From the NCBI GenBank assembly GCA_964548205.1, contig CAZJPJ010000005.1, positions 1,021-65,020 of the forward strand: a DNA stretch of 64,000 bases. Direction: 5' to 3'. The notes under the pieces were generated by a model that made no database searches, was not told where the DNA came from, and was given only the letters and a program-made list of their open reading frames with translations. Shown piece after piece: positions 5,004 to 59,400 of the stretch (position 1 is the first letter of the stretch; every line of letters starts with the position of its first letter). The translations under genes were made by a program, and so were the position numbers. The DNA comes from an uncultured Candidatus Saccharibacteria bacterium (GTDB lineage: Bacteria > Patescibacteriota > Minisyncoccia > Phycocordibacterales > WO2-35-19).

Positions 5004-6332
5004 ATGACAATTTCCAGAAAAAGGGAAGCCGCCATACTTTTTATTGCTGACTTCCTTATTCTTTATGCGTCACTTTGGCTTACATTACTTGTGAGGTATT
5101 GGGGGATACCTAGTGAGCATATCTGGAACATCCACTTTTCTCCGTTTACTATCATTATTTCGGTATGGATACTGGTTTATTTTATATCAGGATTATATGA
5201 GAAACACACTCTTATTCTAAAAAGCAGGCTACCTTCTACTGTATTTAATGCGCAGCTTGTAAATAGTTTTATTGCCGTACTATTTTTTTACTTCATCCCT
5301 TATTTTGGTATTGCTCCTAAGACAAATCTCTTCATATATCTATTGATCTCATTAATATTGGTGATTTTGTGGAGAGTCTATGGAGATAAATTTGTAAGCC
5401 CGTCAGTCAAGCAAAAGGGTATCATCGTTGGAAGTGGGGAGGAGATGAAAGACTTACTTTTAGAAGTGAACGGGAATTCAAGATACGGTTTAGAATTTGT
5501 TTCCTCCATTGATCTAGAAAAAATTGAAGGATTAGACTTCCAAAATGAAATCTTAAATCGGGTTTATTCAGAAGAAATCCAAACAATAGCCATTGATTTA
5601 AAAAATGAAAAAGTAGAACCTATTCTGCCTCACTTGTACAATCTTATTTTTTCGAAAGTAAAATTTATCGATATGTATAAAGTTTATGAAGATATTTTCG
5701 ATAGAGTACCGCTTTCTTTGGTTAGGTATAATTGGTTTTTAGAAAATATTTCTACTGAGAGCGTGACTGTCTATGATGTACCAAAACGCCTAATGGATAT
5801 AACCATTTCATTGCTCATAGGCCTGCCCTCACTACTAATATATCCTCTTGTTTATATTCTTATAAAGTTAGACGACAGAGGAGAAGTTTTTTTTGAACAA
5901 GAAAGAGTGGGCCAAAACAATAAAATAATAAAATTAAAAAAATTCAGGACTATATCACACAACGGGGATCAGGAAATGATAACAAATGTTGGAAAGTTTT
6001 TTAGAAAGATGCGGATAGACGAATTGCCTCAGTTGTGGAATGTTTTGAAAGGGGACATGTCTCTCATAGGTCCTAGGCCAGAAATTCCAAAACTAGTGAA
6101 GCATTATGAAGAAGAGATCCCGTATTACAACATTAGGCATCTGATAAAACCAGGCCTTTCTGGTTGGGCACAGTTGTACCATATAGATCCACCAAAAGTG
6201 GTAGCTGATGCTGATAAGACTCGTATTAAATTGTCATATGATTTTTATTATATTAAGAATAGATCCCTGATGCTTGATCTAAAAATTGCTCTAAAGACCA
6301 TTAAAGCTTTGATGTCTAGGAGTGGTGTTTAG
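5004..6332 (+). CDS. Polyprenyl-phosphate hexose-1-phosphate transferase (WbaP/bacterial sugar transferase family), initiating enzyme
   Basis: 4-5 N-terminal TM helices. C-terminal Bac_transf-type block RPLSLVRYNWF...KRLMDITISLLIGLPSLLIYP...DELPQLWNVLKGDMSLIGPRPE. Confidence 0.8.
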   Translation: MTISRKREAAILFIADFLILYASLWLTLLVRYWGIPSEHIWNIHFSPFTIIISVWILVYFISGLYEKHTLILKSRLPSTVFNAQLVNSFIAVLFFYFIPYFGIAPKTNLFIYLLISLILVILWRVYGDKFVSPSVKQKGIIVGSGEEMKDLLLEVNGNSRYGLEFVSSIDLEKIEGLDFQNEILNRVYSEEIQTIAIDLKNEKVEPILPHLYNLIFSKVKFIDMYKVYEDIFDRVPLSLVRYNWFLENISTESVTVYDVPKRLMDITISLLIGLPSLLIYPLVYILIKLDDRGEVFFEQERVGQNNKIIKLKKFRTISHNGDQEMITNVGKFFRKMRIDELPQLWNVLKGDMSLIGPRPEIPKLVKHYEEEIPYYNIRHLIKPGLSGWAQLYHIDPPKVVADADKTRIKLSYDFYYIKNRSLMLDLKIALKTIKALMSRSGV

Positions 6333-15060: not shown

Positions 15061-16629
15061 ATGAAAATTATATCTTTGGGAATGGGTCAGAAGATATTTG
15101 AAGAAGACTCTACGGTCAGACAGAGAATGATTGAATACGGTAAGATTTTTGATGAGCTCCATATTGTTGTGTTTACTCCAAATTTGGAAAGATATAACAA
15201 ACAAAATATTGCCCCCAATGTATTTTTGTATCCTACGAGGTCAAAAGCAAGAATACTTTACGTGTTTGATTTTTTAAACATTGTAAGACAAATCATAGAA
15301 AAAATAGGCAATAAAGATTTGGTAATAAGCACTCAAGACCCGTTTGAAACTGGCTTGGTTGGTTTGTTGCTTAAACTTCGTTTTGGTCTGCCTCTGCAAG
15401 TCCAAATACATACTGATTTTGTAAATAAGTTTTTTATTAAACATTCAGTACTCAATTTTATTCGTTTACTTATTTCGCACCTAATTTTGCCTTATGCTGA
15501 TGGTGTTAGGGTTGTTTCCAAAAAAATCAGAGACTCGATCACTGATCTGTCTAGTAGTATAAGTATTTTACCGATTCTAACTACCACTAACGTTCAAAGC
15601 CAAAGCATAGAAAAACCAAGTATTTTTTCTATTATAACCGTAAGTAGACTAGAAAGCGAAAAAGCTATTTCGTTGGGTATCAAAGCATTTGCCAAATTTT
15701 TGGAAAATGGTATTAAGTCGAGGTATGTTATTGTTGGGGATGGCTCAGAAAGAAAAAGACTCGAAAAATTAGCCGAGGAACTTGGTGTAGCCGACAAGGT
15801 TTATTTTGTGGGTTGGCAAAACGACATTAGCCCTTTTTATGCTGGGGCAGATGCTTACCTTTCGACTTCCCTTTATGAGGGTTATGGCATGACTCTGATC
15901 GAAGCTTCTTTATCTGGCTTGCCGATTATAATGACCGATACTGGTTTGGCTGGAGATATTTTTATAGATGGCAAAAGTGCACTTGTCTGCAAACAAAATG
16001 ATGTAGTTGGTTTGGCCGAAGCGCTTTTTCATCTTGCTACTGACAAAACTTTTGCACAAAAGATTGCAGATAGTGGTAAAAAACAGGTTACAAGCAGACA
16101 GATTTCAAAAGAGGTTTATCTAGAAAGATACAAGAAGGCTTTGCTCCCATTGTTGAGTGTAAAGATTGCCGGAAATATTTTTAGTCGAGTTATTGAGTTG
16201 GTAAAAAATATGGTGGGCCATATTAGGTTGTTGCGTTTTGCGATTGGTGGGCTTTCTATTGCCTTAGCTCAAATATTGCTTCTCTATATTCTGACTGAAT
16301 TTGCTGGCTACTGGTATCTGCTTTCCTCAGCTATGTCTTTTTGTTTCGCTGTAATCACTAGTTTTCTGGTCCAGAAATATTGGGCGTTTAGGGATCATTC
16401 CAAAGAAAGAGCTGTAAGGCAGTTTATACAATTTGTTATAGTGGCCTTAATCGGTATCGCTACGAATACAGTTTCGATGTTTTTTTGGGTTGATTTGGTT
16501 CATGTTTGGTATGTTCTGGCTCAGGTATTTACGGGAGCTATAATAATGATTATTAATTTCCTAATATATAGATTTGTCATTTTTAAAAATACCTATGAAG
16601 ATTCTAATAATTACCCAGAAAATAGATAG
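15061..16629 (+). CDS. Fusion protein: GT4 glycosyltransferase + C-terminal GtrA-like 4-TM domain
   Basis: GT4 block YEGYGMTLIEASLSGLPIIMTDTGLAGDI. C-terminal LRFAIGGLSIALAQILLLYILTEFAGYWYLLSSAMSFCFAVITSFLVQKYWAFRD matches the GtrA-family pattern. Confidence 0.65.
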   Translation: MKIISLGMGQKIFEEDSTVRQRMIEYGKIFDELHIVVFTPNLERYNKQNIAPNVFLYPTRSKARILYVFDFLNIVRQIIEKIGNKDLVISTQDPFETGLVGLLLKLRFGLPLQVQIHTDFVNKFFIKHSVLNFIRLLISHLILPYADGVRVVSKKIRDSITDLSSSISILPILTTTNVQSQSIEKPSIFSIITVSRLESEKAISLGIKAFAKFLENGIKSRYVIVGDGSERKRLEKLAEELGVADKVYFVGWQNDISPFYAGADAYLSTSLYEGYGMTLIEASLSGLPIIMTDTGLAGDIFIDGKSALVCKQNDVVGLAEALFHLATDKTFAQKIADSGKKQVTSRQISKEVYLERYKKALLPLLSVKIAGNIFSRVIELVKNMVGHIRLLRFAIGGLSIALAQILLLYILTEFAGYWYLLSSAMSFCFAVITSFLVQKYWAFRDHSKERAVRQFIQFVIVALIGIATNTVSMFFWVDLVHVWYVLAQVFTGAIIMIINFLIYRFVIFKNTYEDSNNYPENR

Positions 16630-17611: not shown

Positions 17612-19788
17612 GTGTTGTTATTCCAACCTATAATGAAGCTGATTCTATAAGGGCCACAATAGAGGCTTTTTATGCTACAGGAGTGGTGGATGAGGTTGTC
17701 GCTGTAGATAACAATGCTCTCCGTCACACTTCCTCTGAGATACAGAAAACAAAGGCTATACATATAAAAGAGGAGAGACAGGGCTATGGATATGCCTTGA
17801 TGAGAGGCTTAAATGAAGCCACTGGAGATTTGATCATAATGTGTGAGGCTGATGGCACAGCAGAGCCTAAAGATGTTTTAAAATTTCTTCTTTATAGCGA
17901 TAGCTTTCCTGTTGTTTTGAGTACGCGTACTTCTAGAGCTGCTATATTTTCTGGAGCTTTCATGCCATTTCCGGTAAGGGTGGGTAATTGGCTTTGGGCC
18001 AAGATAGTAGAAGTGTTGTTCAACGGGCCTTCTATGTCGGATATTGGTTCTACTTATAAACTCATAGATAGAGAAACTCTTGAAAAAATAAAAAAATATT
18101 TTGCGCTCTCAGATGGTGATGGTAAGTTTTCTCCAGAATTTATAATGTGGGTTATTCATGCAGGGGTTATGCCTATAGAGATACCTGTGCTATTTAAGCC
18201 ACGTATAGGTGAGTCTATGTATACAGGTAGTGTTTGGCGAGCGGCAAAACTAGGGTTTAGAGAGCTGTGGATGATCATAAAATACCGCTTGGGAATTATA
18301 AGCATGAAAAAATTGTCCAAAAAAAATATTGTTTCAAATTATGAGTTAGTTGCCATGACTCTAGTGTTTATTTCGTCTTTGTTTGTTAGGCTATTTTCTG
18401 CTTTAAGGTTTTCAAATGATGATCAGTTTATTCTTTATAGATACATCCAGAATATTGCAGATGGCAATGGTTTTGTTTATAACCTCGGCGAGAGGGTGTT
18501 GGGAGCGACAACTCCTTTGTTTACTTTGACTGGAGCTTTGTTAAAGTATCTTTTCTATTCACAAAATGTTCCAGACATAGTGGCTGTATTAAATATCATA
18601 CTCATAACTCTAGCTTCACTTTTCTTTTTTAAGTTGGTTCAGCATTTTGTTTCTCTGAGGTTTACATTATTATCTACACTTATATTTGGATTTAATCTTG
18701 CGAGAGTGATTCCAGAAGGAATGGAGACTAGCTTATTTATTCTTCTAGTACTTTCTTTTTTGCATTATATTTTTAATGCTAGAAAAAATATCTCCGCATT
18801 ATTGCTGGGTCTATTGTTGCTTACTAGACCGGATGGGGTAATCATAGCTGCATTCGGCTTGATGTACGTCTTTATAAATTTCGGTAGACAGGCCGCTATA
18901 AAGTTTGTCGTAATTACTAGTTGTGTTGTGCTTCCATGGTTGTTGTTTTCAACATTTTATTTTGGCTCATTTATTCCTCAATCGGTTATTGCTAAGACTC
19001 ATACTAACGATATTGTAAACCAAGTGAGCTATCAAGCATTCAAGGTACAATTTTCAAGTATAAGTAGAATATATTGGGGTAAATTATATGATCCTGACAA
19101 TATAAAATCCCAAATTGCTTTCAATTTGTTGCCGATGTTGGCCCTTATTGTTTTTTCACTTAGAAAAATTGACTATAAAAAATATTGGCTACTTTATGTA
19201 ATACCTCTTTCCTACCTTTTAACATATGGACTAAGTAACCCAGTCATGTTCCCGTGGTATTTAAGTCAGATGGAGCCTTTTTGGATAATCTTATCGTACG
19301 TGGGAGTTGTATATCTATATTCAATAATTAAATATAGGACTTTGGCACTTACCATGCTTGTATTATTTATAATTACCCCGCCCGCTTTTGGGTGGTATCA
19401 ATTAGTGTCAAGAAATGATCCTGGATCAAAGACCCCATTATTTGAAGTCGGAGAATATTTGAAAGATAATGTCAAAGATAGAGAAACTGTTGGGGTAAAT
19501 AACATAGGCATCATAGGTTATATAAGCGATGCTTACATAATAGATTTTTTTGGTTTGGTGAATAATGATTCTCCTTATTTTTATCCAGTAAATGAGTGTG
19601 TAGATAAGAGTATCCAGTATATTATTCCTCCAAATCTTATCCAACATTTCTCTCCTGATTGGTTGGTGGTTAGTGGTGAGACAGAGCTGACCGAATGTTT
19701 TAAAAAAGGAAAATGGTTCAAGAATAATTATCAGTTAGATCAAAGTATTAGTTCCGCGAGGATATACCGAAAATCAAATGAATTTTAA
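17590..19788 (+). CDS. Fusion protein: N-terminal GT2 polyprenyl-phosphate glycosyltransferase (DPM/Ppm-like) + C-terminal polytopic GT-C-like membrane domain
   Basis: VSVVIPTYNEADSI...VDNNALRHTS...GYGYALMRG...MCEADGT (GT2 DxD region). About 12 predicted TM helices follow, with loop YRYIQNIADGNGFVYNLGERVLGATTPLF. Confidence 0.65.
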   Translation: MYRNKKVSVVIPTYNEADSIRATIEAFYATGVVDEVVAVDNNALRHTSSEIQKTKAIHIKEERQGYGYALMRGLNEATGDLIIMCEADGTAEPKDVLKFLLYSDSFPVVLSTRTSRAAIFSGAFMPFPVRVGNWLWAKIVEVLFNGPSMSDIGSTYKLIDRETLEKIKKYFALSDGDGKFSPEFIMWVIHAGVMPIEIPVLFKPRIGESMYTGSVWRAAKLGFRELWMIIKYRLGIISMKKLSKKNIVSNYELVAMTLVFISSLFVRLFSALRFSNDDQFILYRYIQNIADGNGFVYNLGERVLGATTPLFTLTGALLKYLFYSQNVPDIVAVLNIILITLASLFFFKLVQHFVSLRFTLLSTLIFGFNLARVIPEGMETSLFILLVLSFLHYIFNARKNISALLLGLLLLTRPDGVIIAAFGLMYVFINFGRQAAIKFVVITSCVVLPWLLFSTFYFGSFIPQSVIAKTHTNDIVNQVSYQAFKVQFSSISRIYWGKLYDPDNIKSQIAFNLLPMLALIVFSLRKIDYKKYWLLYVIPLSYLLTYGLSNPVMFPWYLSQMEPFWIILSYVGVVYLYSIIKYRTLALTMLVLFIITPPAFGWYQLVSRNDPGSKTPLFEVGEYLKDNVKDRETVGVNNIGIIGYISDAYIIDFFGLVNNDSPYFYPVNECVDKSIQYIIPPNLIQHFSPDWLVVSGETELTECFKKGKWFKNNYQLDQSISSARIYRKSNEF

Positions 19789-21043
19789 AGATTTAGATAT
19801 AAATAATTTTAACAATGCTCTTATTTTTTTGGATATCGATGGAACCATCACTGAAGATAAGTCTCAAAAAATAGATGCGGTAGAGTTGCTTAAAATAAAA
19901 GAATTGCAATATAAAAACAAACTATACCTTTGTTCTAATGGTAATAATAGTAATATTTTTAGTAACCTGATTGGTGTGCCATATATACAAAATCGTAAAC
20001 CGTTTATTGGTAAGAGCGCGAGAAATATTTTGAGAAATTTTGATTCTAAAACTACTAATAAATTTGTCATAGGTGACAAATTTTTGACAGATGGCCTGTT
20101 TGCTTTACTAGCTAAGTCGCGGTTTATAAAAATTAGACACAAAGTCGGTGATAAGAGGACCTTGTTTGAGAGATTATCCTACCTTTTTGATGATATTGTG
20201 TGGTTCTTTTATCAAATTTTCATATTGGTAAGGCCCTTGTCGTGGGTAAAAAGTTTGCTTGTGTTTGCGCCAATCTTTTTTGCAGGAGAGATATTTGAAA
20301 TATCGATCATAACAAAAGCACTCAAGGCTTTTGTGGCGTTCTGCTTTGCTTCTAGTTTTGTTTATGTACTAAATGATATTGCAGATCGAGAAGTAGATAG
20401 AAAACATATGTTTAAAAAATATAGACCTCTAGCAAACGGTGCTATAGGTATCGGGAGTGCGTACTTTATCGCCCTTACTCTTGTTGTGTTTTTATTTAGT
20501 CTGCTATCTTTTGTTCCGGAAATAATAATACCCATTACAATCTACATTGTATTAAATGGTCTATACACTATATGGCTAAAACATATAGCAGTCTTAGACA
20601 TTATATTAGTGTCATCTTTTTATTTGCTAAGAGTCTTGGTGGGGGGTGTGGCTGTAGGGGTATATATTTCACCTTGGATTATTATGTGTGCATTCTTCGG
20701 TTCACTGTTTGTTATATCTGGTAAAAGGAGAGCGGAACATGCTAAGAAAAATAGGAGGCAGGTCCTAGACGACTATTCAGACAAAGCTCTTGATTATATA
20801 TTAGCCATATCTTCTTCCTTGGCTGTTATGGGTTATGCTATCTGGAGTGTTGTTGAGCACGATTCGCCATACCTAGTGTATTCCACAATATTTGTAGTTT
20901 TCTCTCTTTTCCGAGTTTTAAATCGAGTGTATACTCATCCTGAAGAAGCAGAGTCACCTGAGATACTAGTTTTTAAAGATGTTTATATACTCTCAGCCTT
21001 TATATTTTGGGTAATATATATGTATATTATTTTTTATCAATAA
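19778..21043 (+). CDS. Fusion protein: HAD-superfamily phosphatase (YqeG/IIIA-like) + UbiA-family polyprenyl-phosphate (phospho)glycosyl/prenyl transferase
   Basis: HAD motif I FLDIDGTIT at N-terminus. UbiA aspartate-rich motif VLNDIADREVDRKH, a second Asp-rich region DDYSDKALD, 8-9 TM helices. Confidence 0.65.
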   Translation: MNFKDLDINNFNNALIFLDIDGTITEDKSQKIDAVELLKIKELQYKNKLYLCSNGNNSNIFSNLIGVPYIQNRKPFIGKSARNILRNFDSKTTNKFVIGDKFLTDGLFALLAKSRFIKIRHKVGDKRTLFERLSYLFDDIVWFFYQIFILVRPLSWVKSLLVFAPIFFAGEIFEISIITKALKAFVAFCFASSFVYVLNDIADREVDRKHMFKKYRPLANGAIGIGSAYFIALTLVVFLFSLLSFVPEIIIPITIYIVLNGLYTIWLKHIAVLDIILVSSFYLLRVLVGGVAVGVYISPWIIMCAFFGSLFVISGKRRAEHAKKNRRQVLDDYSDKALDYILAISSSLAVMGYAIWSVVEHDSPYLVYSTIFVVFSLFRVLNRVYTHPEEAESPEILVFKDVYILSAFIFWVIYMYIIFYQ

Positions 21044-21058: not shown

Positions 21059-22093
21059 ATGACCTATTTTATTACAGGGGGTTCGGGTTTTTTGGGAATA
21101 AACATGGTCAGATACCTCTTGGAAAGGGGGCACAATATTGTTTCCTATGATCTTCTCCCTTTTGATTATCCTGAGAAAGATAAAATAAAATGGATAGTAG
21201 GAGACATAAGGAACAAAGATTTTCTCAAAAGTAGTATGCAGGGAAGTGATATAGTTATTCATACTGCCGCTGCACTTCCTTTGTACAGTACAGAAGATAT
21301 AAGAACAACTGATATAGATGGCACTAGGAATGTATGTGAATCAGCTCTAGAAAATGGGATAAAGCGCATGATCCATATATCTTCTACTGCTGTATATGGT
21401 ATCCCAGATCACCATCCTTTATATGAGACTGATAAGCTTGATGGTGTTGGAGAATATGGTAAGGCAAAAATTGCCGCAGAGGACATATGCAAAGATTATA
21501 GAAGTAAGGGTCTTGTGGTACCTATACTAAGACCAAAATCTTTTATTGGCCCAGAGCGCTTGGGGGTTTTTGCTTTATTTTATGATTGGGCTGCTACAGG
21601 ACATGGGTTTCCAATGATAGGGAATGGCAAGAATAGGTATCAACTCATGGACGTAGAGGATTTTTGTGAGGGTATTTATCTTGCTTCAACTTTAGAAGAA
21701 GAAAAAGTGAACGATGTTTTTAATTTTGGAGCAAAAGAGTTTACTACTATGGGCGAAGATTATCAGGCAGTACTTGATAGGGCAGGGTTTAATAAAAAGA
21801 TTTCGGGCTGGCCTGCAGCACCCATGATCTGGGCTCTTCGAGTTTTAGAATTTTTCAACCTTTCACCACTTTATAAATGGGTCTATGAGACTGCAAGTAA
21901 AGATAGTTTTGTATCAATAGAAAAGGCGGAAAGGGTACTTGGTTGGAAGCCGAAGTTTTCAAACAAAGATGCCCTCGTGAGAAATTATGAATGGTATTTG
22001 GAACACAAAGATAGTTTTATCGGCCAGAGTGGTGTAAACCACAGAGTACCTTGGAAGCAGGGTGTACTATCATTGGTAAAAAAGTTTTTCTAA
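21059..22093 (+). CDS. NAD-dependent epimerase/dehydratase (extended SDR)
   Basis: ITGGSGFLGINMVRYLLERGH Rossmann motif. YGKAK catalytic YxxxK. Confidence 0.75.
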   Translation: MTYFITGGSGFLGINMVRYLLERGHNIVSYDLLPFDYPEKDKIKWIVGDIRNKDFLKSSMQGSDIVIHTAAALPLYSTEDIRTTDIDGTRNVCESALENGIKRMIHISSTAVYGIPDHHPLYETDKLDGVGEYGKAKIAAEDICKDYRSKGLVVPILRPKSFIGPERLGVFALFYDWAATGHGFPMIGNGKNRYQLMDVEDFCEGIYLASTLEEEKVNDVFNFGAKEFTTMGEDYQAVLDRAGFNKKISGWPAAPMIWALRVLEFFNLSPLYKWVYETASKDSFVSIEKAERVLGWKPKFSNKDALVRNYEWYLEHKDSFIGQSGVNHRVPWKQGVLSLVKKFF

Positions 22094-22111
22094 TTTTATC
22101 TAAAAATCTAA

Positions 22112-22152
22112 AAATGAAACCCCGCCCTCGGCTTTCGCCTCGGGCGGGGTGA
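22112..22152 (-). terminator. GC-rich hairpin terminator between convergent genes (U-tract on minus-strand transcript)
   Basis: ccccgccc(22120-22127)...gggcgggg(22142-22149) stem. On the minus transcript it is followed by uuucauuuuu. Confidence 0.6.
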
Positions 22153-22173
22153 AGAACTTGTGGGGGAAAGGGG

Positions 22174-22707
22174 CTAGATCCACCCCTTCAACCAATGGTG
22201 GAAGCGAGACACCCGCTCCCACAAAATATAGATCGGTGCGCACCAGATTTGAATGTGGGGGTTGCCCAACTCGTACGGTACCTTTCCTGGGTCAAGGATC
22301 CCGACAACCTTGAACTCCAGCTTTTCGGCCACCCACTTGCATCGCATAGCGTGCATGGGGTGGGCGAGGATGACGATACTCTTGAGTTGCGGGCGCGCCG
22401 CCCTCAATATTAAGAAGAAATCGCGAGTGCTGATGTGGTCGGCTCCAGGTTTGCCGACTACCACAGGGGAGTTTTGGGCGATACCCTCAAACTCCCACTG
22501 AAGGGTGAGGGGTTTCCGAAGGTTCTCCTCATAATTCAGGCCAGCTTCAGCTAGTGCTCTATTGCTCGGGTTTATGGGGTCCCCGAGCTTTATGGTCCCA
22601 AACGGGACCACTGCGATGGTGTCAAAAGGGGGAATCACCGCCCCCTGATATGTCTTGAGGTACTTGGAAGGACCCCAGTACCCAAAGAGTTTTTGAAATG
22701 TACTCAC
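22174..22707 (-). CDS. DUF218 (YdcF/ElyC-like) domain protein, inside a GC-rich island; GTG start with AGGAGG SD
   Basis: ...HISTRDFFLILRAA...KSIVILAHPMHAMRCKWVAEKLEF matches the DUF218 S-R-N-T-x-E-N ... VTS-x-x-H-M-x-R motif pair. ORF-track start 22914 replaced by GTG at 22705-22707, preceded by aggagg (22712-22717 rc) at 5-nt spacing. Local GC ~55% versus ~38% genome. Confidence 0.55.
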   Translation of the reverse strand: MSTFQKLFGYWGPSKYLKTYQGAVIPPFDTIAVVPFGTIKLGDPINPSNRALAEAGLNYEENLRKPLTLQWEFEGIAQNSPVVVGKPGADHISTRDFFLILRAARPQLKSIVILAHPMHAMRCKWVAEKLEFKVVGILDPGKVPYELGNPHIQIWCAPIYILWERVSRFHHWLKGWI

Positions 22708-22715
22708 TTTTCCTC

Positions 22716-23450
22716 CTAATTTACAGGTTGTGAAAGGTTTTTCTTGGCGAAGTATTCTACGCCAAGAATTTTGTAAACGGGTAGCCCAAAGAGGTTGGCA
22801 ACGATCCATGTCTGCCAGTACCTCTGGGCGATCATTGGACTGTTCGGGTCGTCGTCCCCCTTCATGGGGGTAGAGACGAACCAAAGTTTTTCTTTTGGGT
22901 GGTAGTGTCTCCACACCATCCGAGCCCTACGTATGTGAGCTCCGTTGCCGACAATGATCGACGGGCCGATAGTAGTGCCGCCATTGACCTCGAGCGCTTT
23001 TGCCACCAGAAGCTCTCTTTCGTCAGTGGTACTCGATGCGTTGCCAGCATTTTTAATCCGGCCAAACAAAGAGTTACGAAGTGCGAGAACTTTTTTACTT
23101 GCAAATTCTTTTGATCCCTCGGGGTTATCTCGGAATTCGCATGAAAAAATACGTGAGTCCGGATACTCGTACGCCAGTAGAATGGCGAGCAGTGTGGTGT
23201 TGAGAGACATACACGTTAGCCCCTGTTCGTTTGCTGCATACGATATCAGGAATACGTTTTTTATTCCGTCATTGCTGGGCAATTCATGCCGTTCGTCTAT
23301 CTCCATCCAAGGTATGAATAGGGATAGTATTCGAGATACTAGCCATGATGTCAAAAACCTGATCACAGCCGGCTTACCAAGAAGCCGGAGAAATTTTTGT
23401 TCCACGATTTCAATCTCCTTCTTTTGTGATTTAAGCATAAAATTTGGCAT
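22716..23450 (-). CDS. DUF218-like domain protein (divergent paralog of downstream gene), GC-rich island
   Basis: ...NASSTTDERELLVAKALEVNGGTTIGPSIIVGNGAHIRRARMVW parallels SRNTYENA...LVTSAFHMPRA of DUF218. N-terminal TM helix. Confidence 0.45.
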   Translation of the reverse strand: MPNFMLKSQKKEIEIVEQKFLRLLGKPAVIRFLTSWLVSRILSLFIPWMEIDERHELPSNDGIKNVFLISYAANEQGLTCMSLNTTLLAILLAYEYPDSRIFSCEFRDNPEGSKEFASKKVLALRNSLFGRIKNAGNASSTTDERELLVAKALEVNGGTTIGPSIIVGNGAHIRRARMVWRHYHPKEKLWFVSTPMKGDDDPNSPMIAQRYWQTWIVANLFGLPVYKILGVEYFAKKNLSQPVN

Positions 23451-23489
23451 TTTGCAAGTTTAGTCTTGCCTTTATTTTAACACTCTTTT

Positions 23490-25175
23490 TTGTTACTTTT
23501 ACTACACATGAATTTGTCAAAAAAGGAACTGCTAGTTTTCTTGGGATTAATTATTTTGTTTTTTGCTCTGCGGCTGCCGGGAGTTACTACCCCATACCAT
23601 CAAGATGAATACAAATGGCCGCTTTATGCCGAAGAGAAGGTCTATGCTCCAGGGAGCGTACCTCACCCTCCACTTACAGAATTTATTTATAGAGTGGTGG
23701 GCAAACATATAGGGTTAGACAATTTTAGATTCATCCCCCTAACTTTTGGTTTTATAAATTTATTTCTACTTTTCTATCTTGTCTCTTTTATTTTTGATCG
23801 CAAGACTGCTTTTTGGGCTGTCGGACTCCATACTGTATCTTTCTACTCCATACTTGCTAACCTTATGGTCGATGTGGATGGTAGTGTTATGCCCTTTTTC
23901 TTTCTTACCTCTCTAATTGGTTATTACAAGATGAGGCTTCTTGATTTCAAACTTGTCAGACAAAATATAAAATGGCCCATCTTACTTCTCTTGGGTATCG
24001 TGGGAGGATTTCTTATCAAAGTCAGTTTCTTTTTGAGCATCGCTGCTATAGGAGCAGATTTTTTGTTTGAAAAAAGAGTTTTCTCTGATAAGAAAAAAGT
24101 ATTGAAATATAGTTTTTATGCATCACTCGCAATGTTGGGGCTTGTGCTTATACTTCTCTCTATCAAATATATATTCCCGTTTTTTGATCTGTCAAAAGCT
24201 CTTAAATATTGGGAGCATTTCGCTGTGTTTAGTGGCAGAGGTTGGGGTCAGACGTTTATACAGTTTGCAAAGTCTCTTATGTACATTTCACCGATGCTTC
24301 TCTTGCCTCTTGCTTTTGTAAACAGAGATCTTTGGGCCAGAGCGAGACCAATGTTTCTATTTCTATTTTTTGCTACAGTTTTCTATCTCTTGGTCTTTGA
24401 TTTCTCTTTGGGTGCTATCGACAGGTATTTTCAGTTTGCAGTGGTACCGCTATCTATAATAGTAGGTTCTATATTTGCAAGCTATATAAAATGGGAAGAT
24501 GCGAAGGAGTTTAGAGAGAAGAAATATTTGTATATATCTATATCTATCGCAGTAATTATATTCCTTATCCAATTGTTGCCACATGTAGCACCGCCTCTGT
24601 ATCCTAAAAGTGAATGGGTAGGCAGGGTCTTTTCTTTAGAGTGGAACTTATTGTTCCCATTTATGGGTGGTTCTGGACCGATACCGTTTTATATGTCTTT
24701 TGGTTTTATAGCACTTAGCTTCATTGCTTCTTTGGTTTTTGTTGTATCAGCTATATTTAGACGAAAGATTATTAGTTTTGCTCTACTTTCTGTACTTATA
24801 TTAGGACTTTCTTACAACTTTGCTTTTACACAAGAATACTTATTTGGCAAGATAAATGGTAGCTCCAAAAATCTTGTAAAAGAAGCACTCGAGTATATAG
24901 AGAAAGATCAAAAAATAAAAAAAGTTGTGGTTTATAATGATAACGGTGGATGGGATGTAAGGAAAACCGGCAAGTATGCTCGTAGGATGTATGCTACTCC
25001 AGAGTTTGAAGATGAATATAAAGAATATCTAGAGGCTTTTAGTGGTCATGTTATGTTTGTGGGTGTACCAACACTATATAAGAATAGTTTTTATCAACAA
25101 TATTTTGATTCTTGCGAAGTTGTTTATACAAAGAGAGATAAACAAATCGGGTCTAAAATATATAAATGTAATTAG
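23490..25175 (+). CDS. GT-C fold membrane glycosyltransferase (ArnT/PMT-like, lipid-phosphosugar dependent)
   Basis: 12-13 TM helices. First extracytoplasmic loop PYHQDEYKWPLY (DE motif as in ArnT/PMT family). Large C-terminal soluble domain. Confidence 0.55.
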   Translation: MLLLLHMNLSKKELLVFLGLIILFFALRLPGVTTPYHQDEYKWPLYAEEKVYAPGSVPHPPLTEFIYRVVGKHIGLDNFRFIPLTFGFINLFLLFYLVSFIFDRKTAFWAVGLHTVSFYSILANLMVDVDGSVMPFFFLTSLIGYYKMRLLDFKLVRQNIKWPILLLLGIVGGFLIKVSFFLSIAAIGADFLFEKRVFSDKKKVLKYSFYASLAMLGLVLILLSIKYIFPFFDLSKALKYWEHFAVFSGRGWGQTFIQFAKSLMYISPMLLLPLAFVNRDLWARARPMFLFLFFATVFYLLVFDFSLGAIDRYFQFAVVPLSIIVGSIFASYIKWEDAKEFREKKYLYISISIAVIIFLIQLLPHVAPPLYPKSEWVGRVFSLEWNLLFPFMGGSGPIPFYMSFGFIALSFIASLVFVVSAIFRRKIISFALLSVLILGLSYNFAFTQEYLFGKINGSSKNLVKEALEYIEKDQKIKKVVVYNDNGGWDVRKTGKYARRMYATPEFEDEYKEYLEAFSGHVMFVGVPTLYKNSFYQQYFDSCEVVYTKRDKQIGSKIYKCN

Positions 25176-39940: not shown

Positions 39941-40357
39941 ATGGTTGGGATAAATTATTTGGCCATTATAGTCGCGTCAGTACTTTCTATGGTTGTGGGG
40001 GCTATTTGGTACGGGCCGCTTTTTGGTAAAAAGTGGGCGGAGATAGTCGGGGCAGATATGAATGATATGGAGGCGAGGAAAAAAATGCAGAAAGGAGCCA
40101 CCAAGCTTTATGTCGTTCAGTTTTTGCTGACACTGTTTCAAGTCTATGTGTTGGCACATTTTATAAAAGGGTGGAGCGATGTATCTGCTATCGAATCGTC
40201 GCTTTGGATCTGGGCTGGGTTTGTGATGCCTACTATCGCAGGTACTGCTATGTGGAACAATGATAGCGCACGGATTTCATGGGCCAGGTTTCTAATACAA
40301 TCGGGCTACCAGATCGTATTGTTTGTAATGTTTGCCTTTATTTTGGGTAATTGGTAA
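39941..40357 (+). CDS. DUF1761 family membrane protein
   Basis: MVGINYLAIIVASVLSMVVGAIWYGPLFGKKW N-terminus typical of DUF1761. 4 TM helices. Confidence 0.55.
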   Translation: MVGINYLAIIVASVLSMVVGAIWYGPLFGKKWAEIVGADMNDMEARKKMQKGATKLYVVQFLLTLFQVYVLAHFIKGWSDVSAIESSLWIWAGFVMPTIAGTAMWNNDSARISWARFLIQSGYQIVLFVMFAFILGNW

Positions 40358-50252: not shown

Positions 50253-51659
50253 GTGGTAATGGAAAATGAGCAATATAAGCTAACGGTTGGTCTTGAGGTA
50301 CACGCTGAACTCGCTACATCTACAAAGATGTTTTGTTCTTGCAAAAACGATCCTGATGAGCAAAGGCCAAATGTAAACATATGTCCGGTCTGCCTAGCTC
50401 ATCCTGGTACACTACCTGTGCCAAACAAACAGGCGATAAAGAAGATTTTTGAGGTGGGGCTTGCTATAGGGGGAGAGATTCAAAATGTCAGTGAATTTGA
50501 CCGTAAGAATTATTTTTACCCTGATATACCAAAAGGATACCAAATAAGCCAGTACAAATTTCCATTTGTTTCTGGAGGTATTTTGGCTGGAGTAGATATA
50601 GAAAGGGTACATCTCGAGGAAGATACTGCCAAGTCTACACACTCCACCACTCATAGCTTAGTAGATTTTAACAGAGCTGGGGTGCCTCTTATGGAGCTTG
50701 TTACAAAGCCGTGTATTCATGAGCCTGAAAAAGTGTCTGAATTTGCTAGAGAGCTGCAACTTTTGCTGCAGTATATCGGTGCAGCTAGGGCAAATATGGA
50801 AAAGGGTGAAATGAGAGTTGAAGCAAATATTTCAGTCAGTAAAGATGACAAGTTGGGCACAAAAGTGGAGGTGAAGAATTTAAACTCAATAAAATCTGCT
50901 CAAAAAGCAGTAGAGTATGAATATAAAAGACAGATCGAAGTTCTTGAATCGGGGGGGGATATTGTACAGGAGACCAGAGGATGGGATGACCAGAAGTTCG
51001 AGACGTTTAGTCAAAGAAAGAAGGAAAGCTCTCATGATTATCGATATTTTCCTGACCCTGATTTGCCAAAAATATCTATTTCTGAAGATTCTGATCTTCA
51101 CCCGAATAATTTGGCAGAATCTATCCCCAAAACACCCATTACAAAGCGCAGCGAATTTGCAACCAAGTATGGAATAAAAGACGCAGATATCGAGTTTTTT
51201 GTGTATGACTACTTGATGTCCGATCTTTTTGAAGCTGCCGCATCTGGTTTAGATAGTAAAGAGGAGTACCAACTACTCTCAAACTACATAGTTACTGACG
51301 TGGCGTCACTCGATGATGAACAGAAAAAGATTGATCCTAATCAACTGACAGACTTGGTAAAGTTGATTAGAAACGGAGACCTTTCATCAAGGGGGGCGAA
51401 GGATCTAATACCGCATTTCCACCTTGGCGGAAAAGCTTTTGATATTGCAAAAGAGAAGGGTTTGTTGCAGGTTACAGATAGGGCGGCACTGGAGTCTATA
51501 GTAGATAAGGTAGTGACAGAGAATGAAAAAGTTGCAAATGAGTATAAGGCCGGTAAAGAGGCTTCATTGCAGTTTCTAATAGGTATGTGTATGAAGGAGG
51601 CTAAAGGTGCAGGGAACCCAAAAGTATTTAAGGAGATACTCTCAACCCGTCTTTCGTAG
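50253..51659 (+). CDS. gatB: Asp-tRNA(Asn)/Glu-tRNA(Gln) amidotransferase subunit B
   Basis: LTVGLEVHAELATSTKMFCSC...NICPVCLAHPGTLP N-terminal cradle domain. C-terminal YqeY-like tail. Confidence 0.9.
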   Translation: MVMENEQYKLTVGLEVHAELATSTKMFCSCKNDPDEQRPNVNICPVCLAHPGTLPVPNKQAIKKIFEVGLAIGGEIQNVSEFDRKNYFYPDIPKGYQISQYKFPFVSGGILAGVDIERVHLEEDTAKSTHSTTHSLVDFNRAGVPLMELVTKPCIHEPEKVSEFARELQLLLQYIGAARANMEKGEMRVEANISVSKDDKLGTKVEVKNLNSIKSAQKAVEYEYKRQIEVLESGGDIVQETRGWDDQKFETFSQRKKESSHDYRYFPDPDLPKISISEDSDLHPNNLAESIPKTPITKRSEFATKYGIKDADIEFFVYDYLMSDLFEAAASGLDSKEEYQLLSNYIVTDVASLDDEQKKIDPNQLTDLVKLIRNGDLSSRGAKDLIPHFHLGGKAFDIAKEKGLLQVTDRAALESIVDKVVTENEKVANEYKAGKEASLQFLIGMCMKEAKGAGNPKVFKEILSTRLS

Positions 51660-52254
51660 AGAACTTTTCCAACATGACGTTGTATTTATTAGGGCTCCCA
51701 ACAATTTTCAGTATCGGCTCTTGCTGAAGTAGTTTGTTCCAGCGGTTTTTACTTATATAATCATCCTTGCTGGAAATACATATGTCCGAATCCGTGCCAG
51801 AATGGATCTGAAGTGAAGCCTCAACAATGTCATTCTTTAGCACCTTTCTTATACAGAACGGTCCGTTGAAAACATGCCCCCTGCGCTTATATTTGGAATT
51901 AAAATATTTTGCATAAGCCGTCTGAACCCTCTGCATGTACACCGACGCACTGCCCATAGAAATATTGCGTATAAGGAGATCGAAGCCCTTCTTGTGAATA
52001 CTGAAGGCAATCAGGTCCACCTCCTTTCTATTGTAGATATCGTCAATTTTATTTTTGCCAATACGGAATTCTTTTTTCTTCAAAAAAGTAGATATATACC
52101 AATGGGTATTGAATACATTTGCGGGGGAGACTAAGTGAGTTATATAAAAAACAAATCTAACAGAGTCTTCTGAGTCTAAGAAAACATCAGAGCCGCCTGC
52201 ACCAGTGTTCCATACCCTAAAAAAAGTATTCTCAGTTATATCTGTGTACCTCAT
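51628..52254 (-). CDS. IS200/COG1943-like (PF01797-type Y1 HUH transposase family) protein with degenerate HUH motif; probably domesticated/solitary
   Basis: FRVWNTGAGGSDVFLDSEDSVRFVFYITHLVSP parallels YHV.nRGn...iF.ddeD...fl...NHVHLL (only one His retained). KRRGHVFNGPFCIRKV parallels the family block GHLFQGRF. The 3' end overlaps gatB by 32 nt, leaving no room for an IS end. Confidence 0.45.
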   Translation of the reverse strand: MRYTDITENTFFRVWNTGAGGSDVFLDSEDSVRFVFYITHLVSPANVFNTHWYISTFLKKKEFRIGKNKIDDIYNRKEVDLIAFSIHKKGFDLLIRNISMGSASVYMQRVQTAYAKYFNSKYKRRGHVFNGPFCIRKVLKNDIVEASLQIHSGTDSDICISSKDDYISKNRWNKLLQQEPILKIVGSPNKYNVMLEKFSTKDGLRVSP

Positions 52255-53484: not shown

Positions 53485-56400
53485 GTGGATGAAGCATTAA
53501 TAATTAAGGAGAAGAAGTACATCTCGTCAAAGCGAGCATCTGAACTGACAGGCTATACCAGTGACTACATTGGACAACTGGCCAAAAAGGGGAAAATCGC
53601 TTATGAAAATATTGGTAGGACTACTTACGTTGTTGAGGATGAAATTTTGTCGTATAAGAGCATTAGTACTTATAGGTCAAGATCTAAAAAGAATTCTCTA
53701 AGTAGTAAATCGGATAAAAGTGACAATAAGAATAGATCGAAGGAGTATCAAGAAAGCGACTTAATGAATGATTTGAAAAATTTTGTTCTTATTGACAAGG
53801 ATCTTTATGAAGAATCTGAAGATAGTGATGTTTCTCGGAATGACGATATTTCTATGGGATATGGTAGGAATAAGGTTCTTGATACAAAAATAAAATATGA
53901 ATCTGATAGTTCAGATCTCATTCCTCAGACTGTTAGAAATATAGACATTCTAAGTGCGCGATATGTTGCACTTAGGGCTGTGAGAAATAGTATTGAGGAT
54001 AGAAATCATGGCAAGGTGTCTAGATTCAATAAATTTATTTTTTTTGTTCCAGTAGTGATACTCGTTATTTTGTTCGGTAATATTCTAGGTACATTCAATC
54101 AGGTTGCAAAGAATTTCAGGGTAGGAAATCTGGCTAATCAAACTAAAACAGAGTTGGTTTATATTTATAAGCCAACATTCGACAACTTGATTAGTAATTA
54201 TAAAAAAATAGGGTCTATATTTGATAGAGTTAGTCTTGCAAATAACTCTGCTGCTGTGGCCAATTCTTCTAAATTTGTCGGTATCAAGAATTGGCTAGGG
54301 GATATAGGTATGGTTATTTTTAAGCCCTGGCTTGCTAATGATTCTCCAGTTGTGATTGAAAACCAAATTGTAAAAGAAACCGTTAGAGAGGTGGTGTCGG
54401 GATCATCTGGGATATCTACATCAAAAACTGTGTATGTAGAAAACAATGACAAAAGTTATGTCGAGTATGTAGATCAGAAATTTTTTCAACTCAAAGACTA
54501 TGTCGATACTATAATGTCTAGAACTGTTAGTAGAGATCAGCTTTCGAGGCAGAATGATACCATTGTTAGTGTTTTGGGAAGGACTTCTTCTGGTAGCGGT
54601 GCTAGCTCTGGGGTGTCAAATCTTTTAGAGCTTGATGATGTCAGTTTGTCTTCTCTCAGTTATGGTAATCTGCTTATGTACAACGGTTCAGAATGGGTCA
54701 ATGTATCCACTAGCTCACTTGGTATAATAGGTGGAAGTAGTAGTCCTGGTGGTTCTAGTGGTTTTATACAATACAATAACAGCGGTACTTTCGGTGGAGC
54801 CAATAATTTTCTTTGGGACAGTACAAACGAAAGGCTTGGTCTCGGTACTACTTCTCCTTATGCAAAACTGTCGGTAGTGGGAGAGGTTGTAGCTGCATAT
54901 TTTACTTCTACCACAACTGCAACGTCAACATTCGGAGGCAATCTTGCAATTGGAGGTACTGGAACTTCGACAAGTGCAGGAGGCCTCAACCTCACCGGCG
55001 GCTGCTTTGCGATCAACGGAAATTGTCTGTCTATTGGAGGGGGAGGTTTATCAAGTTACGATGCGTGGACGCATCCTGCATATGGTGGCAGTGCTACAAC
55101 TTCACTTCTAACGTTATCAAATGGATTTTTAGCAACAGCTTCTTCTACGATAGTAGGTAATGCTACTACCACAGGATCACAAGGTGTAGGTGCTCTTTTT
55201 GTAAACAGCGATTACATCACAGACTTTACTGGTACTGGTCTTGTGATTTCAGGCACATCTCTTTCTGCCTCTCTAGGTACTTCTATTGATCTAACTTCTG
55301 AAGTTACTGGAACGTTGCCTGTTGCTAATGGTGGAACCGGTACAACTTCTCTGAATGATCTTATAACTCTCGGCACTCACACTAGTGGAAATTACCTAGC
55401 AACTCTATCTGGAACTACAAATCAAATCACTGTTACTGGTTCCGGTTCTGAAACTGCTACTCCTACTCTTTCTATACCAAACCAATTTAATATTCAACAA
55501 GCGTCGACAACAATTCTTTCAGTTCATGGAGGGGGTTTATATGTTGGTACGACTGCCACAACCACAATACTTGGAACTGCCACATCTACATTCGGTGCAG
55601 GTATACAAGCTAGTTATTTAAATCTAACTGGAACATCTGCTACTTCGACTGCATCGAGCGGTATAAACCTCACCGGCGGCTGCTTTGCGATCAACGGAAA
55701 TTGTCTGTCTATTGGAGGGGGAGGTTTATCAAGTTACGATGCGTGGACGCATCCTGCATATGGTGGCAGTGCTACAACTTCACTTCTAACGTTATCAAAT
55801 GGATTTTTAGCAACAGCTTCTTCTACGATTGTGGGAGATGCTACTACTACTGGAACATTTTCTGTAGGAACTAGGCTTCACGTTACAGATCAAGGGTTTG
55901 GTACCACCACTCTAACAGGTTTATCTATATCAGGCTCTGCTACCTCCACCTCCAACGTAGGTCTAAACCTTACATCAGGATGTTTCGCCATTAACGGCAC
56001 ATGTCTTTCGACTGGCGGAGGAGGTGGCGGGTCTGACACTGTTTGGCTAGAGGCGTATGCTGGTGGTACGGGAGTTAATCAAAATACAACTACATATCTT
56101 ACTCCCGGTGATTCTGCTTTTACTTCAGGTTCAACTACTCGTTTTCCTGCCCCGTCTGATATTACTGACGCTACAATTTGTGTGCATATAAGTTCTGATC
56201 AGCCAGCAAGTCAAGACCTGACAGTTGCGCTTCAAGATGATGATGTAGATACAGCAGCTGTATTGATTATCCCAGGGGGTTCTACTGCTGTGAACAGCCC
56301 ATATTGCAGTACAACAGCAAGCGTTAGTGTAGCAAAGGGTTCTTTGTTGAGGTACCGCTTCAGTCAGGCAGCTGGGGCGTCTTCTTCTGGTGGTGTTAGA

Positions 56401-59400
56401 AAAGTTTCAGTATCATTGACTACTAGTTCAGGAAGTGGGGGTAGTGGTCTAACTTCTTATGACGCTTGGGGACACCCGCTATTTGGTCTTTCTGCCACTA
56501 CCTCTCAACTCCTTATCGGTACAACTACAGCATCAAACTATCAACTCAGTATTAGCTCTTCAACCGCTCCTCAACTCTCCCTCTCAGCCGGAGCGGGCTT
56601 TGCTCAAACTACATTTAGAAACGATGGTACTAACTTCTATATATCTACAACTACAGTAGCTGGTAACGCCACCACATCTACAAGCGCTCTCGAGATAGCT
56701 CTAGGGGGCTTCGGTACCACTACAGTACGTGGTCTAAACATAAACGGTCAAGCTACTTCTACTTCAAATGTTGGCCTCAACCTCACCGGTGGTTGCTTTG
56801 CTATCAATGGAACATGTCTATCAACTGGTGGAGGGGGAGGTTTATCAAGTTATGACGCATGGACCCACCCATCATATGGAGGTAGTGCTACAACTTCACT
56901 TCTAACGTTATCAAATGGACTTTTGGCTACCGCTTCTTCAACAATCTCTTCTTCTCTTTATCTACCCTCATTATCACAAGGATTTTTGTACAATGGTTCA
57001 AATGGTTTAACGAGTACTATCGCATCCTCATCAGTTAATCTTTCTTGGTTCAACAATGATTCGGGATATTTATCAAGCTATGACGCTTGGGGACACCCAC
57101 TATTTGGTCTTTCTGCCACTACCTCTCAACTCCTTATCGGTACAACTACAGCATCAAACTATCAACTCAGTATTAGCTCTTCAACCGCTCCTCAGCTAGC
57201 TCTATCTGCTGGGGAAGGAATAAATCAATGGTCTTTCCGAAATGCTGGAGGCAACTTTTACCTGTCTACTACCACTGTATCCGGTAACGCAACTACGAGT
57301 ATTAGCGCGCTTTCTATAATTGGGTCAAGCGGATATGTTAGCGTTGGAGCGACAAGTACACCATTTGCTAAGCTTTCGGTCCAACAAGATTCGGCAAACA
57401 ACGCTTTTGTTATCGGCAATTCTTCTGGTACTAGCATGCTTGTGGACGAGAATGGCAGGGTCGCAATAGGTACAGCTACCATACCTTCTTTTACCGGCAC
57501 AACAAAATTTACGGTTAGTGGTACGTCTGGGACAAATGCAATCGTTAGAGATACAACTAGTTTTTCTTCAATAATTTCTCAAGGGGCTACTGAAGGCAAT
57601 CTTATACTTCAAGATACTGGGGCATCTTCTAACTCCCAAGCTTTTAACTGGAATTCAAATGATGGGACGCTATCACTTAGGGTGTTGAACGATGCAATAA
57701 ATGGTGTCATCAGTACACCTTTCGCTATATCTAGCAATGGTAATGTTGGCATCAATACATCTCCAAGTAGTATAAAGGTTAGTATAATTGCAAACGACAA
57801 TGATGGACTATCGATATCTAATGGTACCAACAGTACATTATTGTTTACACCCGTGGGTAATGGTCAATTTAGGCTTAAGACTGATTCTAGTGGTAGGTGG
57901 ATAAGTTTTGCTGACGGAGCTGGGAACGCTGATACTATGGTTGTAAGAGATGGAAGGGTTGGTGTTGCAACTACCACTCCTTCATATGCATTAAATTCTT
58001 ATTCCTCTTCCGCTCCTCAACTCTCCCTCTCAGCCGGAGCGGGCTTTGCTCAAACTACATTTAGAAACGATGGTACTAACTTCTATATATCTACAACTAC
58101 AGTAGCTGGTAACGCCACCACATCTACAAGCGCTCTCGAGATAGCTCTAGGGGGCTTCGGTACCACTACAGTCAGAGGTCTAAACATAAATGGTCAAGCT
58201 ACTTCTACTTCAAATGTTGGCCTCAACCTCACCTCCGGCTGCTTCGCCATAAACGGCACCTGTCTATCGACTGGAGGAGGTGGTGGTGCCTCCACAACAC
58301 TCCTTGCTGATTTCAATACTTTCTCTAACACCAACAACTTTACTGGAGCAGTTGGTCTCTCTTCCTCAACCCCATTTGCTCGTCTTTCTATCAATGCTGA
58401 TGCAGGAGAAGCTGGTCTCGTAGTCGGTTCTACCACAGGCACCTCTTTCATTGTAGATAAGAATGGGATGGTGGGTATTGGGACTGCGGTGCCAACAAAA
58501 GCGTTGACAATCTCTGATTCTGGTGCAACACACACTATCGGCAACGGGGCATTATCGATAAATTCACTTGGTACCACTGCGATCCTAGAATTGTTTGACT
58601 CATCTTCAGAAGGTCTTGCTATAAACAGTATATCTTCAAATACCGCTTTTACAAACGATGGCTATATTAGTTTCGAGCCTGGACTTGTAGAGTCTATGAG
58701 ACTTACAACGGGTGGCAGTTTAGGTCTGGGTACGACAACTCCTTGGGCAAAATTGTCTGTCGGTATAACGGGGGGAGACAGTGTTCCTGAATTTGTCGTG
58801 GGGGGTTCGAGCTCTACTTACTTTCTAGTAAATGATGTTGGTAATGTTGGTATAAAGACCTCTTCCCCGACATCTGCCCTAGATGTGAATGGTAGAATTG
58901 TACAAAGGGGCAGTGTTGCAGCAAATCTGAATGCATATCTAAATACCAATGCAGGTAGTGTTGCGTCGGCTACAAACTTGGCTCCTGGTTTATTGGTGTA
59001 CAACGATGGATTCGGTGGTAATTTTGGTCTTGATATCGGCAATGAAAGCGGCTCTTATTACACAAGAATTTTTGCAGGTGATGGCTATGGCATAGGATTT
59101 GCATTTAGTAGGGGCGCTGCACCAACGTCTCAAAGTGCTTTTGATGAGGTTATGTTTATAAAGAGTAATGGTATGGTGGGTGTGGGTACTACTACTCCTG
59201 GTTATCAACTCACAATCGCTTCCAGTACTGGCCCTCAGCTTGCACTTTCTGCTGGCGCTGGCATTAATCAGTGGTCATTTAGGAATGCAGGAGGAAACTT
59301 ATACATATCCACCACAACAATAGATGGGTTAGCAACTACATCAGTTAGCTCCTTTTCAATATTGACTTCATCCGGTAATGTCGGTATACGTACTGATTCG

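Follow-up and report, generated by a model that had tools for sequence, protein, structure and literature searches.

Polyprenyl-phosphate pentofuranose glycosylation has been described as a "three-component" system (Kelly et al. 2024; PMC11127046), and the systems described there have no DUF218 component, the term being absent from that paper. The DUF218 family (PF02698) includes SanA, for which a putative catalytic Thr/His/Glu triad has been proposed (PMC12176290). Here, we analyze a contig stretch from an uncultured Candidatus Saccharibacteria bacterium (CAZJPJ010000005.1; 64,000 nucleotides, the window) in which an island of raised guanine-plus-cytosine (GC) content, positions 22100-23460, lies inside a surface-glycan locus and carries two minus-strand genes, g1 and g2. 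A preliminary description read the island as two tandem DUF218 genes recently acquired from a higher-GC donor. That reading is contradicted by low-GC relatives, which have the same slot and mostly the same anomaly, and by silent sites that are as saturated in the island as in its flanks. The explanation we favor, and hold with middling confidence, is that g1 and g2 are a DUF218-like accessory pair that has long resided in a pentofuranose-type glycan locus, vertically persistent and with a composition maintained by some force.

Composition of the island and its conservation in relatives

The island is a two-gene minus-strand operon, g1 then g2, with its own putative promoter, two Shine-Dalgarno (SD) sites, and a terminator hairpin. 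Gene g1 (22716..23405, minus strand) starts at GTG and encodes an alpha/beta protein of 229 amino acids; g2 (22174..22707, minus strand) also starts at GTG and encodes a divergent DUF218/YdcF-like protein of 177 amino acids. The GC content of 22100-23460 is 49.8%, versus 38.0% in the rest of the window, and the preliminary description was correct in its background of 38%. Its estimate of about 55% for the island holds for the left half, where 300-nucleotide sliding windows peak at 56% across 22100-22599 (0.563 at 22100-22399), but not for the segment as a whole, which is near 50%. Similarly, the change in composition is abrupt at the left border, where GC rises from 0.39 to 0.56 within 200 nucleotides just past the epimerase stop codon at 22093, but not at the right border, where it decays gradually inside the 5' part of g1. 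The GC contents of g1 and g2 are 0.477 and 0.541, and their GC contents at third codon positions (GC3) are 0.517 (z = 4.1) and 0.674 (z = 7.5), against a reference of 0.335 +/- 0.045 from 42 other open reading frames (ORFs). In tetranucleotide distance from the background, the island exceeds all control windows of 1361 nucleotides (0/173 reach it), while its dinucleotide signature is less extreme and is exceeded by 10 of the 173. Five plus-strand ORFs of at least 50 amino acids crowd the segment, as had been described. Thus, sliding-window GC, GC3 z-scores, and tetranucleotide distance all mark a strongly atypical composition, as expected of a recently acquired genomic island.

The second expectation for such an island, absence from relatives or closer homologs in a donor, was not borne out. 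Our comparison sample was eight lineages, the window plus seven others, which were mostly Saccharibacteria metagenome-assembled genomes (MAGs); loci L006 and L007 are from uncultured Candidatus Saccharibacteria MAGs, and a metagenome scan contributed one locus only. A contig look-up by exact sequence did not recover the proteins of the window itself. A slot gene was present in all eight, and the best homologs of g1 and g2 are themselves slot genes. Where context could be recovered, the homologs occupy the same slot, inverted, between a GT-C glycosyltransferase gene and an epimerase/UbiA or GT2 gene. The slot holds g1 alone in L001, L002/L003, L006, L007, L009, and two JGI contigs (P0004 and P0006), both genes in the window and L004/L005, and a g2-type gene alone in L013. 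Relative to the window, flank proteins are 45 to 85% identical, g1 is 33 to 53% identical, and g2 is 35 to 48% identical. The related loci have GC contents of 36 to 41%; thus, the best homologs belong to relatives that are similarly low in GC and carry them at the same syntenic position, the very outcome that the preliminary description had set against its own interpretation.

The compositional anomaly is conserved with the slot. Six of the seven other lineages have a slot gene that is GC-rich relative to its own flanks, and across the window and these six, GC3 is 0.50 to 0.67 in slot genes versus 0.26 to 0.41 in flanks (z of 2.3 to 9.2). For g1, GC3 is 0.60 against flanks of 0.32 in L001 (z 9.2), 0.60 against 0.35 in L005 (z 5.1), where g2 reaches 0.65, 0.50 against 0.36 in L006 (z 2.3), 0.52 against 0.33 in L007 (z 3.6), and 0.51 against 0.34 in L009 (z 4.7). 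The g2-type gene of L013 has a GC3 of 0.56 against flanks of 0.26 to 0.31, and g1 of L002 has 0.38 against 0.37 (z 0.1).

The translation signal sets the slot genes apart as well. Among 36 genes of the window, an SD sequence was found at a plausible start in g1 and g2 only; the other 34 lack one of at least 5 nucleotides (examples are the starts at 5004, 6373, 10116, 32349, and 35240). Several operon-first genes have a TGnTAnAAT extended -10-like box ending 7 to 9 nucleotides ahead of ATG, in leaderless style, and these sequences suggest that leaderless mRNAs are widespread in the source organism. Across loci, the SD core is present in 10/10 slot genes versus 8/74 flanking genes (Fisher p = 1.6e-8). 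Even the normal-GC g1 of L002 carries AGGAGG. A general link between SD sequences and GC richness was looked for in L002 and not seen. We conclude that the slot genes differ from their host genomes in both initiation mode and composition and that both differences are conserved.

Silent sites indicate that the anomaly is old. At 4-fold sites of identical amino acids, identity between orthologs is random in island and flanks alike, with excess identities of 0.047 for g1, 0.098 for g2, 0.048 for the GT-C gene, 0.099 for the epimerase gene, and -0.02 for the UbiA gene. Moreover, pairwise g1 identities co-vary with those of the adjacent GT-C protein (r = 0.94, six non-independent pairs), the g1 of L005 being the exception. 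Between the strain-level pair L004 and L005, the islands do not differ, and flank identity is 97 to 100%. Under neutral amelioration, GC3 would be expected to have reached about 0.3 by now, but it has not decayed. Thus, in the reading that we favor, GC-rich codons and SD sites would be old properties that have persisted through full turnover of silent sites, which would imply some selection or local bias acting on base composition and mode of expression. We infer selection on island composition.

The codon change amounts to a global GC shift and does not follow the optimal-codon usage of highly expressed genes. At the third positions of island genes, C increases from 0.13 to 0.31 and G increases from 0.18 to 0.26, and all codon families move GC-ward: NNC is used over NNT; GCC, GGC, GGG, CCC/CCG, and CTC increase; and GCT, GGT, and CCA decrease. 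CGN replaces AGA, TTA is nearly gone, and GAG, CAG, and AAG increase. The move from NNY to NNC takes GAC from 19% to 85% of Asp codons, CAC from 27% to 80% of His codons, and AAC from 27% to 70% of Asn codons. A global GC shift differs from the usual optimal-codon pattern in AT-rich bacteria. Several other causes were considered and rejected. Amino acid composition does not account for the shift, as GC at first and second codon positions (GC1 and GC2) rises only by about 0.06 to 0.1, versus 0.2 to 0.35 for GC3. Gene orientation does not either, as other minus-strand genes have ordinary GC3. An overlapping conserved nucleotide function or antisense gene is at odds with random identity between orthologs at 4-fold sites, and avoidance of antisense stop codons is at odds with the depletion of TTA alone, as CTA and TCA are not depleted. 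Finally, the island was searched with Rfam for a structured RNA, and neither the gathering nor the permissive threshold yielded more than chance-level matches.

Raised GC also occurs elsewhere in the window. A DUF1761 protein gene (39941-40357, plus strand) has a GC3 of 0.489 (z 3.4) and no SD, and a 208-amino-acid ORF (51628-52254, minus strand), with neither a Pfam match nor an SD, has a GC3 of 0.455 (z 2.7). A giant ORF of 2600 amino acids (53485-61287, plus strand) lies in a stretch of 44 to 46% GC; its excess is in GC2 (0.52) and its GC3 is ordinary (0.285), and therefore it reflects amino acid composition rather than an island phenomenon.

The operon and its proteins

The island has the parts of a complete transcription unit. 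The start of g1 is GTG 23405 and not ATG 23450, judging from the N termini of homologs, and AAGGAG (23415..23420, minus strand) stands 9 nucleotides ahead of it. Farther upstream is a putative sigma-70-type promoter (23429..23457, minus strand), TTGCAA and TTAAAT with a 17-nucleotide spacer, which was read by sequence as a consensus match only and was not reported by the automatic promoter scan; transcripts from it would have a leader of about 16 nucleotides. The SD of g2, AGGAGG at 22712..22717 (minus strand), overlaps the TAG stop codon of g1 (22718-22716) and is followed by AAAA and then by GTG at 22707, and the N terminus so defined agrees with that of the closest homolog. The preliminary description had this geometry right except for the spacer between AGGAGG and GTG, which is 4 and not 5 nucleotides. 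Downstream, an intrinsic terminator (22099..22150, minus strand) consists of an inverted repeat that forms a hairpin at 22150..22119, with 9 G-C-rich outer pairs and an inner stem (free energy of -29.3 kcal/mol; z -3.84), followed by UUUCAUUUUUAGAUUUUUAG. It has the form of a Rho-independent terminator, a stable GC-rich hairpin and then UUUCAUUUUU on the minus strand. The U-tract is on the minus strand only, with none on the plus strand, and thus the hairpin terminates g1-g2 and not the epimerase transcript. The GC hairpin and the two tandem ORFs, both of them coding and on the minus strand, are therefore as first described.

Both g1 and g2 are confirmed as real protein-coding genes. Gene g1 has 13 relatives at 43 to 56% identity with 41 invariant columns, and an AlphaFold (AF2) model of its product (predicted local distance difference test [pLDDT] score of 89) has a five-stranded parallel alpha/beta domain after an N-terminal helical segment. 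For g2 (AF2 model pLDDT of 82), a word-indexed search returned only g2 itself, and an exhaustive HMMER scan, run with g2 only against 1.84 billion representatives, returned 40 relatives.

How the two proteins relate to DUF218 is a matter of distance. Against the PF02698 gathering threshold of 27.6 bits, g1 scores 12.5 bits (E = 0.14) and g2 has no match; NCBIfam gave no match for either. Relatives are closer to the family: PF02698 is matched by 25 of 38 g2 relatives (best E of 3.3e-5), and a g2 profile search retrieves proteins with precomputed PF02698 assignments, one of them named "YcdF (DUF218 family)." Among PDB structures, the g2 model is matched best by E. coli YdcF (3ca8; probability 0.97, TM-score 0.45). 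Sequence-profile searches of the PDB with the island proteins gave nothing useful. Conserved motifs are QWE, (D/S)T, AHPxHxxR, and KGWI in the g2 family and CEF, TTDERE, and GNGAHIRRA in the g1 family. Weak DUF218 matches occur in 5 of 13 g1-family members, and g1 aligns with the g2 family in hhalign (probability 85%, E of 6.6e-6, over 150 columns). In alignments, E72, T94, and H119 (with R122) of g2 appear to fall at the positions of the SanA Glu/Thr/His triad, and E90, T127/E129, and H157 (with R160) of g1 at the matching motif positions. We conclude that g2 is probably a divergent member of the DUF218 superfamily, that g1 is probably a still more remote relative, and that the two may be remote paralogs of each other. 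Thus, what survives of "two tandem DUF218 genes" is a likeness at the superfamily level; the Pfam threshold is not reached, and g1 is at most a candidate member. Separately, two large proteins, P0030 (2703 amino acids) and P0038 (1052 amino acids), align to a short part of g2 near its N terminus (residues ~22-83 and 29-51) in 13 to 14 repeated stretches, either a true repeat of a DUF218 submotif or a compositional artifact.

Explanations for the island

We propose that the island forms a bicistronic operon on the minus strand that is complete in itself, comprising promoter, SD, g1, SD, g2, and terminator, that would fill a conserved accessory slot of a surface-glycan locus, between the gene for a GT-C transferase and those for an SDR epimerase and a UbiA-type phosphoribosyltransferase. 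The locus would resemble the polyprenyl-phosphate pentofuranose three-component pathway. By analogy to SanA/ElyC and from gene context, g1 and g2 may be enzymes or flux regulators that act on polyprenyl-(pyro)phosphate-linked intermediates. The common ancestor of the lineages may already have had both genes or one of the two, which would then have been passed down together with the locus while g1 or g2 was differentially lost. Indeed, we infer that an ancestral g1-g2 tandem pair, differentially lost, is the simplest history.

Several observations count against this proposal. No force holding GC3 high was identified, and the sample is only eight lineages. Locus L002 alone has a g1 of normal GC, and thus the protein does not require high GC in order to function. 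Slot content varies among g1, g1 plus g2, and g2, which fits gene turnover too. The g1 of L005 is just 30 to 35% identical to all other g1 proteins, which points to at least one replacement or acceleration. A distant member of the g2 family forms a GC island at an unrelated locus, L011, in another genome of the candidate phyla radiation (CPR), which favors mobility of the family. The DUF218 assignment is open to objection as well: neither protein is above the Pfam threshold, comparisons of g1 with Pfam-positive members (E of 0.16) and with SanA/YdcF (E of 0.33 to 0.55) are not significant, and YdcF is absent from the top 50 Foldseek PDB matches of the g1 model, the matches being generic Rossmann-like folds. 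Despite the nonsignificant scores, the T..E and H..R motifs of g1 align with those of Pfam-positive members and SanA.

The main rival to vertical persistence is recurrent xenologous replacement, in which a hot-spot slot is refilled in each lineage by DUF218-like cassettes, SD included, from unsampled GC-richer donors that use SD sequences; the islands would be young and the slot old. We regard it as a serious contender but an unlikely one. Replacement would account for the variable slot content, the L005 outlier, and the L011 island, and the shift of all codon families toward GC is what foreign DNA would show. Moreover, SD sequences are typical of most bacteria and rare in these genomes, and the nearer g2 relatives have a GC-type amino acid composition. 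The nearest relatives of every examined island gene, however, are slot genes of AT-rich genomes, g1 distances track GT-C distances, and silent-site saturation equals that of the flanks. When g2 was compared with 1.84 billion representatives, no relative exceeded 53% identity, and a donor lineage could not be identified among the matches; the best g2 relatives with recoverable context occupy the same slot, and more distant ones are of mixed composition. Finally, the usual marks of mobility (integrase, tRNA, direct repeats, plasmid or phage homology) were not found: there are no tRNA genes, no insertion-type flanking repeats common to related loci, no plasmid or phage matches at the DNA or protein level, and no integrase domain among the annotated and Pfam-scanned ORFs, which were a part of the total.

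Two features that could suggest mobility were looked at separately. An imperfect (74%) AT-rich inverted repeat of 23 nucleotides (22092-22114 and 23422-23444) brackets the island almost exactly, and a similar repeat brackets the slot gene of L013 (3020-3042 and 3748-3770); none was found in L001, L005, L006, or L007. The repeat is probably due to chance, and a mobile cassette with terminal repeats was rejected, as this weak AT-rich repeat of the window and L013 is all there is. Locus L011 contains two single-gene GC islands, 2117-2599 and 5261-5968 (GC of 0.61 versus ~0.44), one the distant g2-family member and the other an unrelated 235-amino-acid protein with a GC3 of 0.82. The second, 5261-5968, was considered as a g1 relative and rejected for want of similarity.

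A more specific form of maintenance is speculative, and we think it rather doubtful: GC-rich codons and SD sites may be actively maintained, with the inverted cassette serving as an expression-insulated module in an SD-less, largely leaderless, AT-rich operon, possibly in excludon-like fashion. In that form, read-through of the plus-strand operon, which has no plus-strand terminator, would run antisense to g1-g2. High GC might then stabilize the RNA or shield a long untranslated spacer from degradation or Rho, and expression of the DUF218-like pair would be reciprocal to that of the polyprenyl-phosphate pentofuranose glycan pathway under its regulation. Selection would then be keeping the base composition of a gene far from genomic equilibrium over family-level divergence.

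Translational selection, by which high expression and optimal C-ending codons rather than foreignness would explain the composition, is improbable. The strong NNY-to-NNC shift of Asp, His, and Asn codons would fit it, and so would a strong SD. However, 4-fold families shift alike, CGN replaces AGA, and GAG, CAG, and AAG increase, and genes for SecA, GatB, and an L011 ribosomal protein have no comparable GC3.

Recent horizontal acquisition from a higher-GC donor, private to the source genome, as first described, is very improbable. The extreme GC3, the outlying tetranucleotide distance, and SD sites unique to g1 and g2 within the window are what it would predict, but the same slot, genes, and anomaly are found in six other diverged lineages. 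The homolog search that had been proposed for finding the donor lineage found none and placed the best homologs in AT-rich lineages, and the saturated silent sites, the tracking of GT-C by g1, and the absence of mobility marks count further against a recent arrival. Lastly, an artifact, whether an assembly chimera or a GC-rich segment that is noncoding (for instance, a structured RNA) and whose ORFs are spurious, might be suspected from the abrupt GC jump and the many ORFs on both strands but has a negligible chance of being correct, as independent assemblies (NCBI, Logan, ENA, and JGI) share the same junctions and so exclude a chimera, L004 and L005 are 98 to 100% identical across the junctions, the protein families are conserved with confident folds, no Rfam family matches, and silent sites have no nucleotide-level conservation.

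Why an anciently resident pair would matter is twofold. Compositional islands are routinely read as recent transfer, and the g1-g2 island persists across lineages with turned-over silent sites. An island maintained by selection would be a clean case, found in nature, of individual genes whose base composition and way of initiating translation are not neutral, and it would caution against inferring transfer from GC content in CPR genomes. In addition, the pair would add to the pentofuranose glycosylation loci of Saccharibacteria a DUF218-like component that had not been noted before, one that bears on SanA/ElyC-type biochemistry and on epibiont surface chemistry.

The glycan locus and its likeness to known systems

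The genes around the island are glycan genes, as the preliminary description had stated. On the left are genes for a UbiA-family prenyl-phosphate transferase (19778..21043, plus strand; PF01040, E of 2.5e-21), with an N-terminal DxDGT HAD-like motif seen by eye only, and an SDR-type NAD-dependent epimerase (21059..22093, plus strand; E of 7e-37), which is convergent with g2 and 81 to 85% identical in related loci. On the right, divergent from g1, is the gene for a GT-C-type (PMT_2-like) membrane glycosyltransferase (23490..25175, plus strand; PF13231, E of 2.1e-5). Its PF13231 score of 25.3 bits is just under the 26.1 cutoff, its orthologs are annotated PMT_2, and its true start is likely ATG 23508, behind the extended -10 box TGTTACTTT. 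Other neighbors include a GT4 transferase fused to a GtrA domain (15061-16629), GT2 and GT4 transferases, methyltransferases, and a TupA-like ATP-grasp protein. At the edge of the window, the 3' end of a 23S rRNA gene (1-1014) spreads 359 model positions (2567-2925) over 1014 nucleotides, which implies about 650 nucleotides of inserted sequence; no Rfam intron family matched the insert.

The island resembles classical genomic islands, that is, nonameliorated horizontal gene transfer in the Lawrence-Ochman model, in its sharp compositional break limited to genes, its atypical codon usage, and its atypical translation signal. It differs in that no integrase, flanking tRNA gene, or direct repeats were found and in that the slot is syntenic across lineages with saturated silent sites. 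Moreover, the anomaly has not been ameliorated, which the Lawrence-Ochman model does not predict for an old transfer.

With the DUF218 family (PF02698; E. coli YdcF [3CA8], SanA, ElyC, and YgjQ), g1 and g2 appear to share a small Rossmann-like alpha/beta domain and motif positions equivalent to the proposed Glu/Thr/His triad and the H..R motif, along with a genomic association with lipid-carrier-dependent synthesis of envelope glycans. They differ from it in occurring as a tandem pair and in their host, a Gram-positive-type CPR epibiont without enterobacterial common antigen (ECA) or an outer membrane. The g1 protein also carries an additional helical segment at its N terminus, and its direct comparisons with SanA and YdcF are not significant. 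Unlike SanA and ElyC, neither protein has an N-terminal transmembrane anchor, and thus both are probably cytoplasmic or peripheral.

The locus as a whole is closest to the three-component systems and to the mycobacterial decaprenylphosphoryl ribose/arabinose (DPR/DPA) pathway. The window encodes probable counterparts of their components, namely, a polyprenyl-phosphate phosphoribosyltransferase of the UbiA type, an SDR epimerase, a GT-C glycosyltransferase, and a GtrA-type domain. What sets it apart from the three-component systems is an inverted DUF218-like gene, always between the GT-C and epimerase genes.

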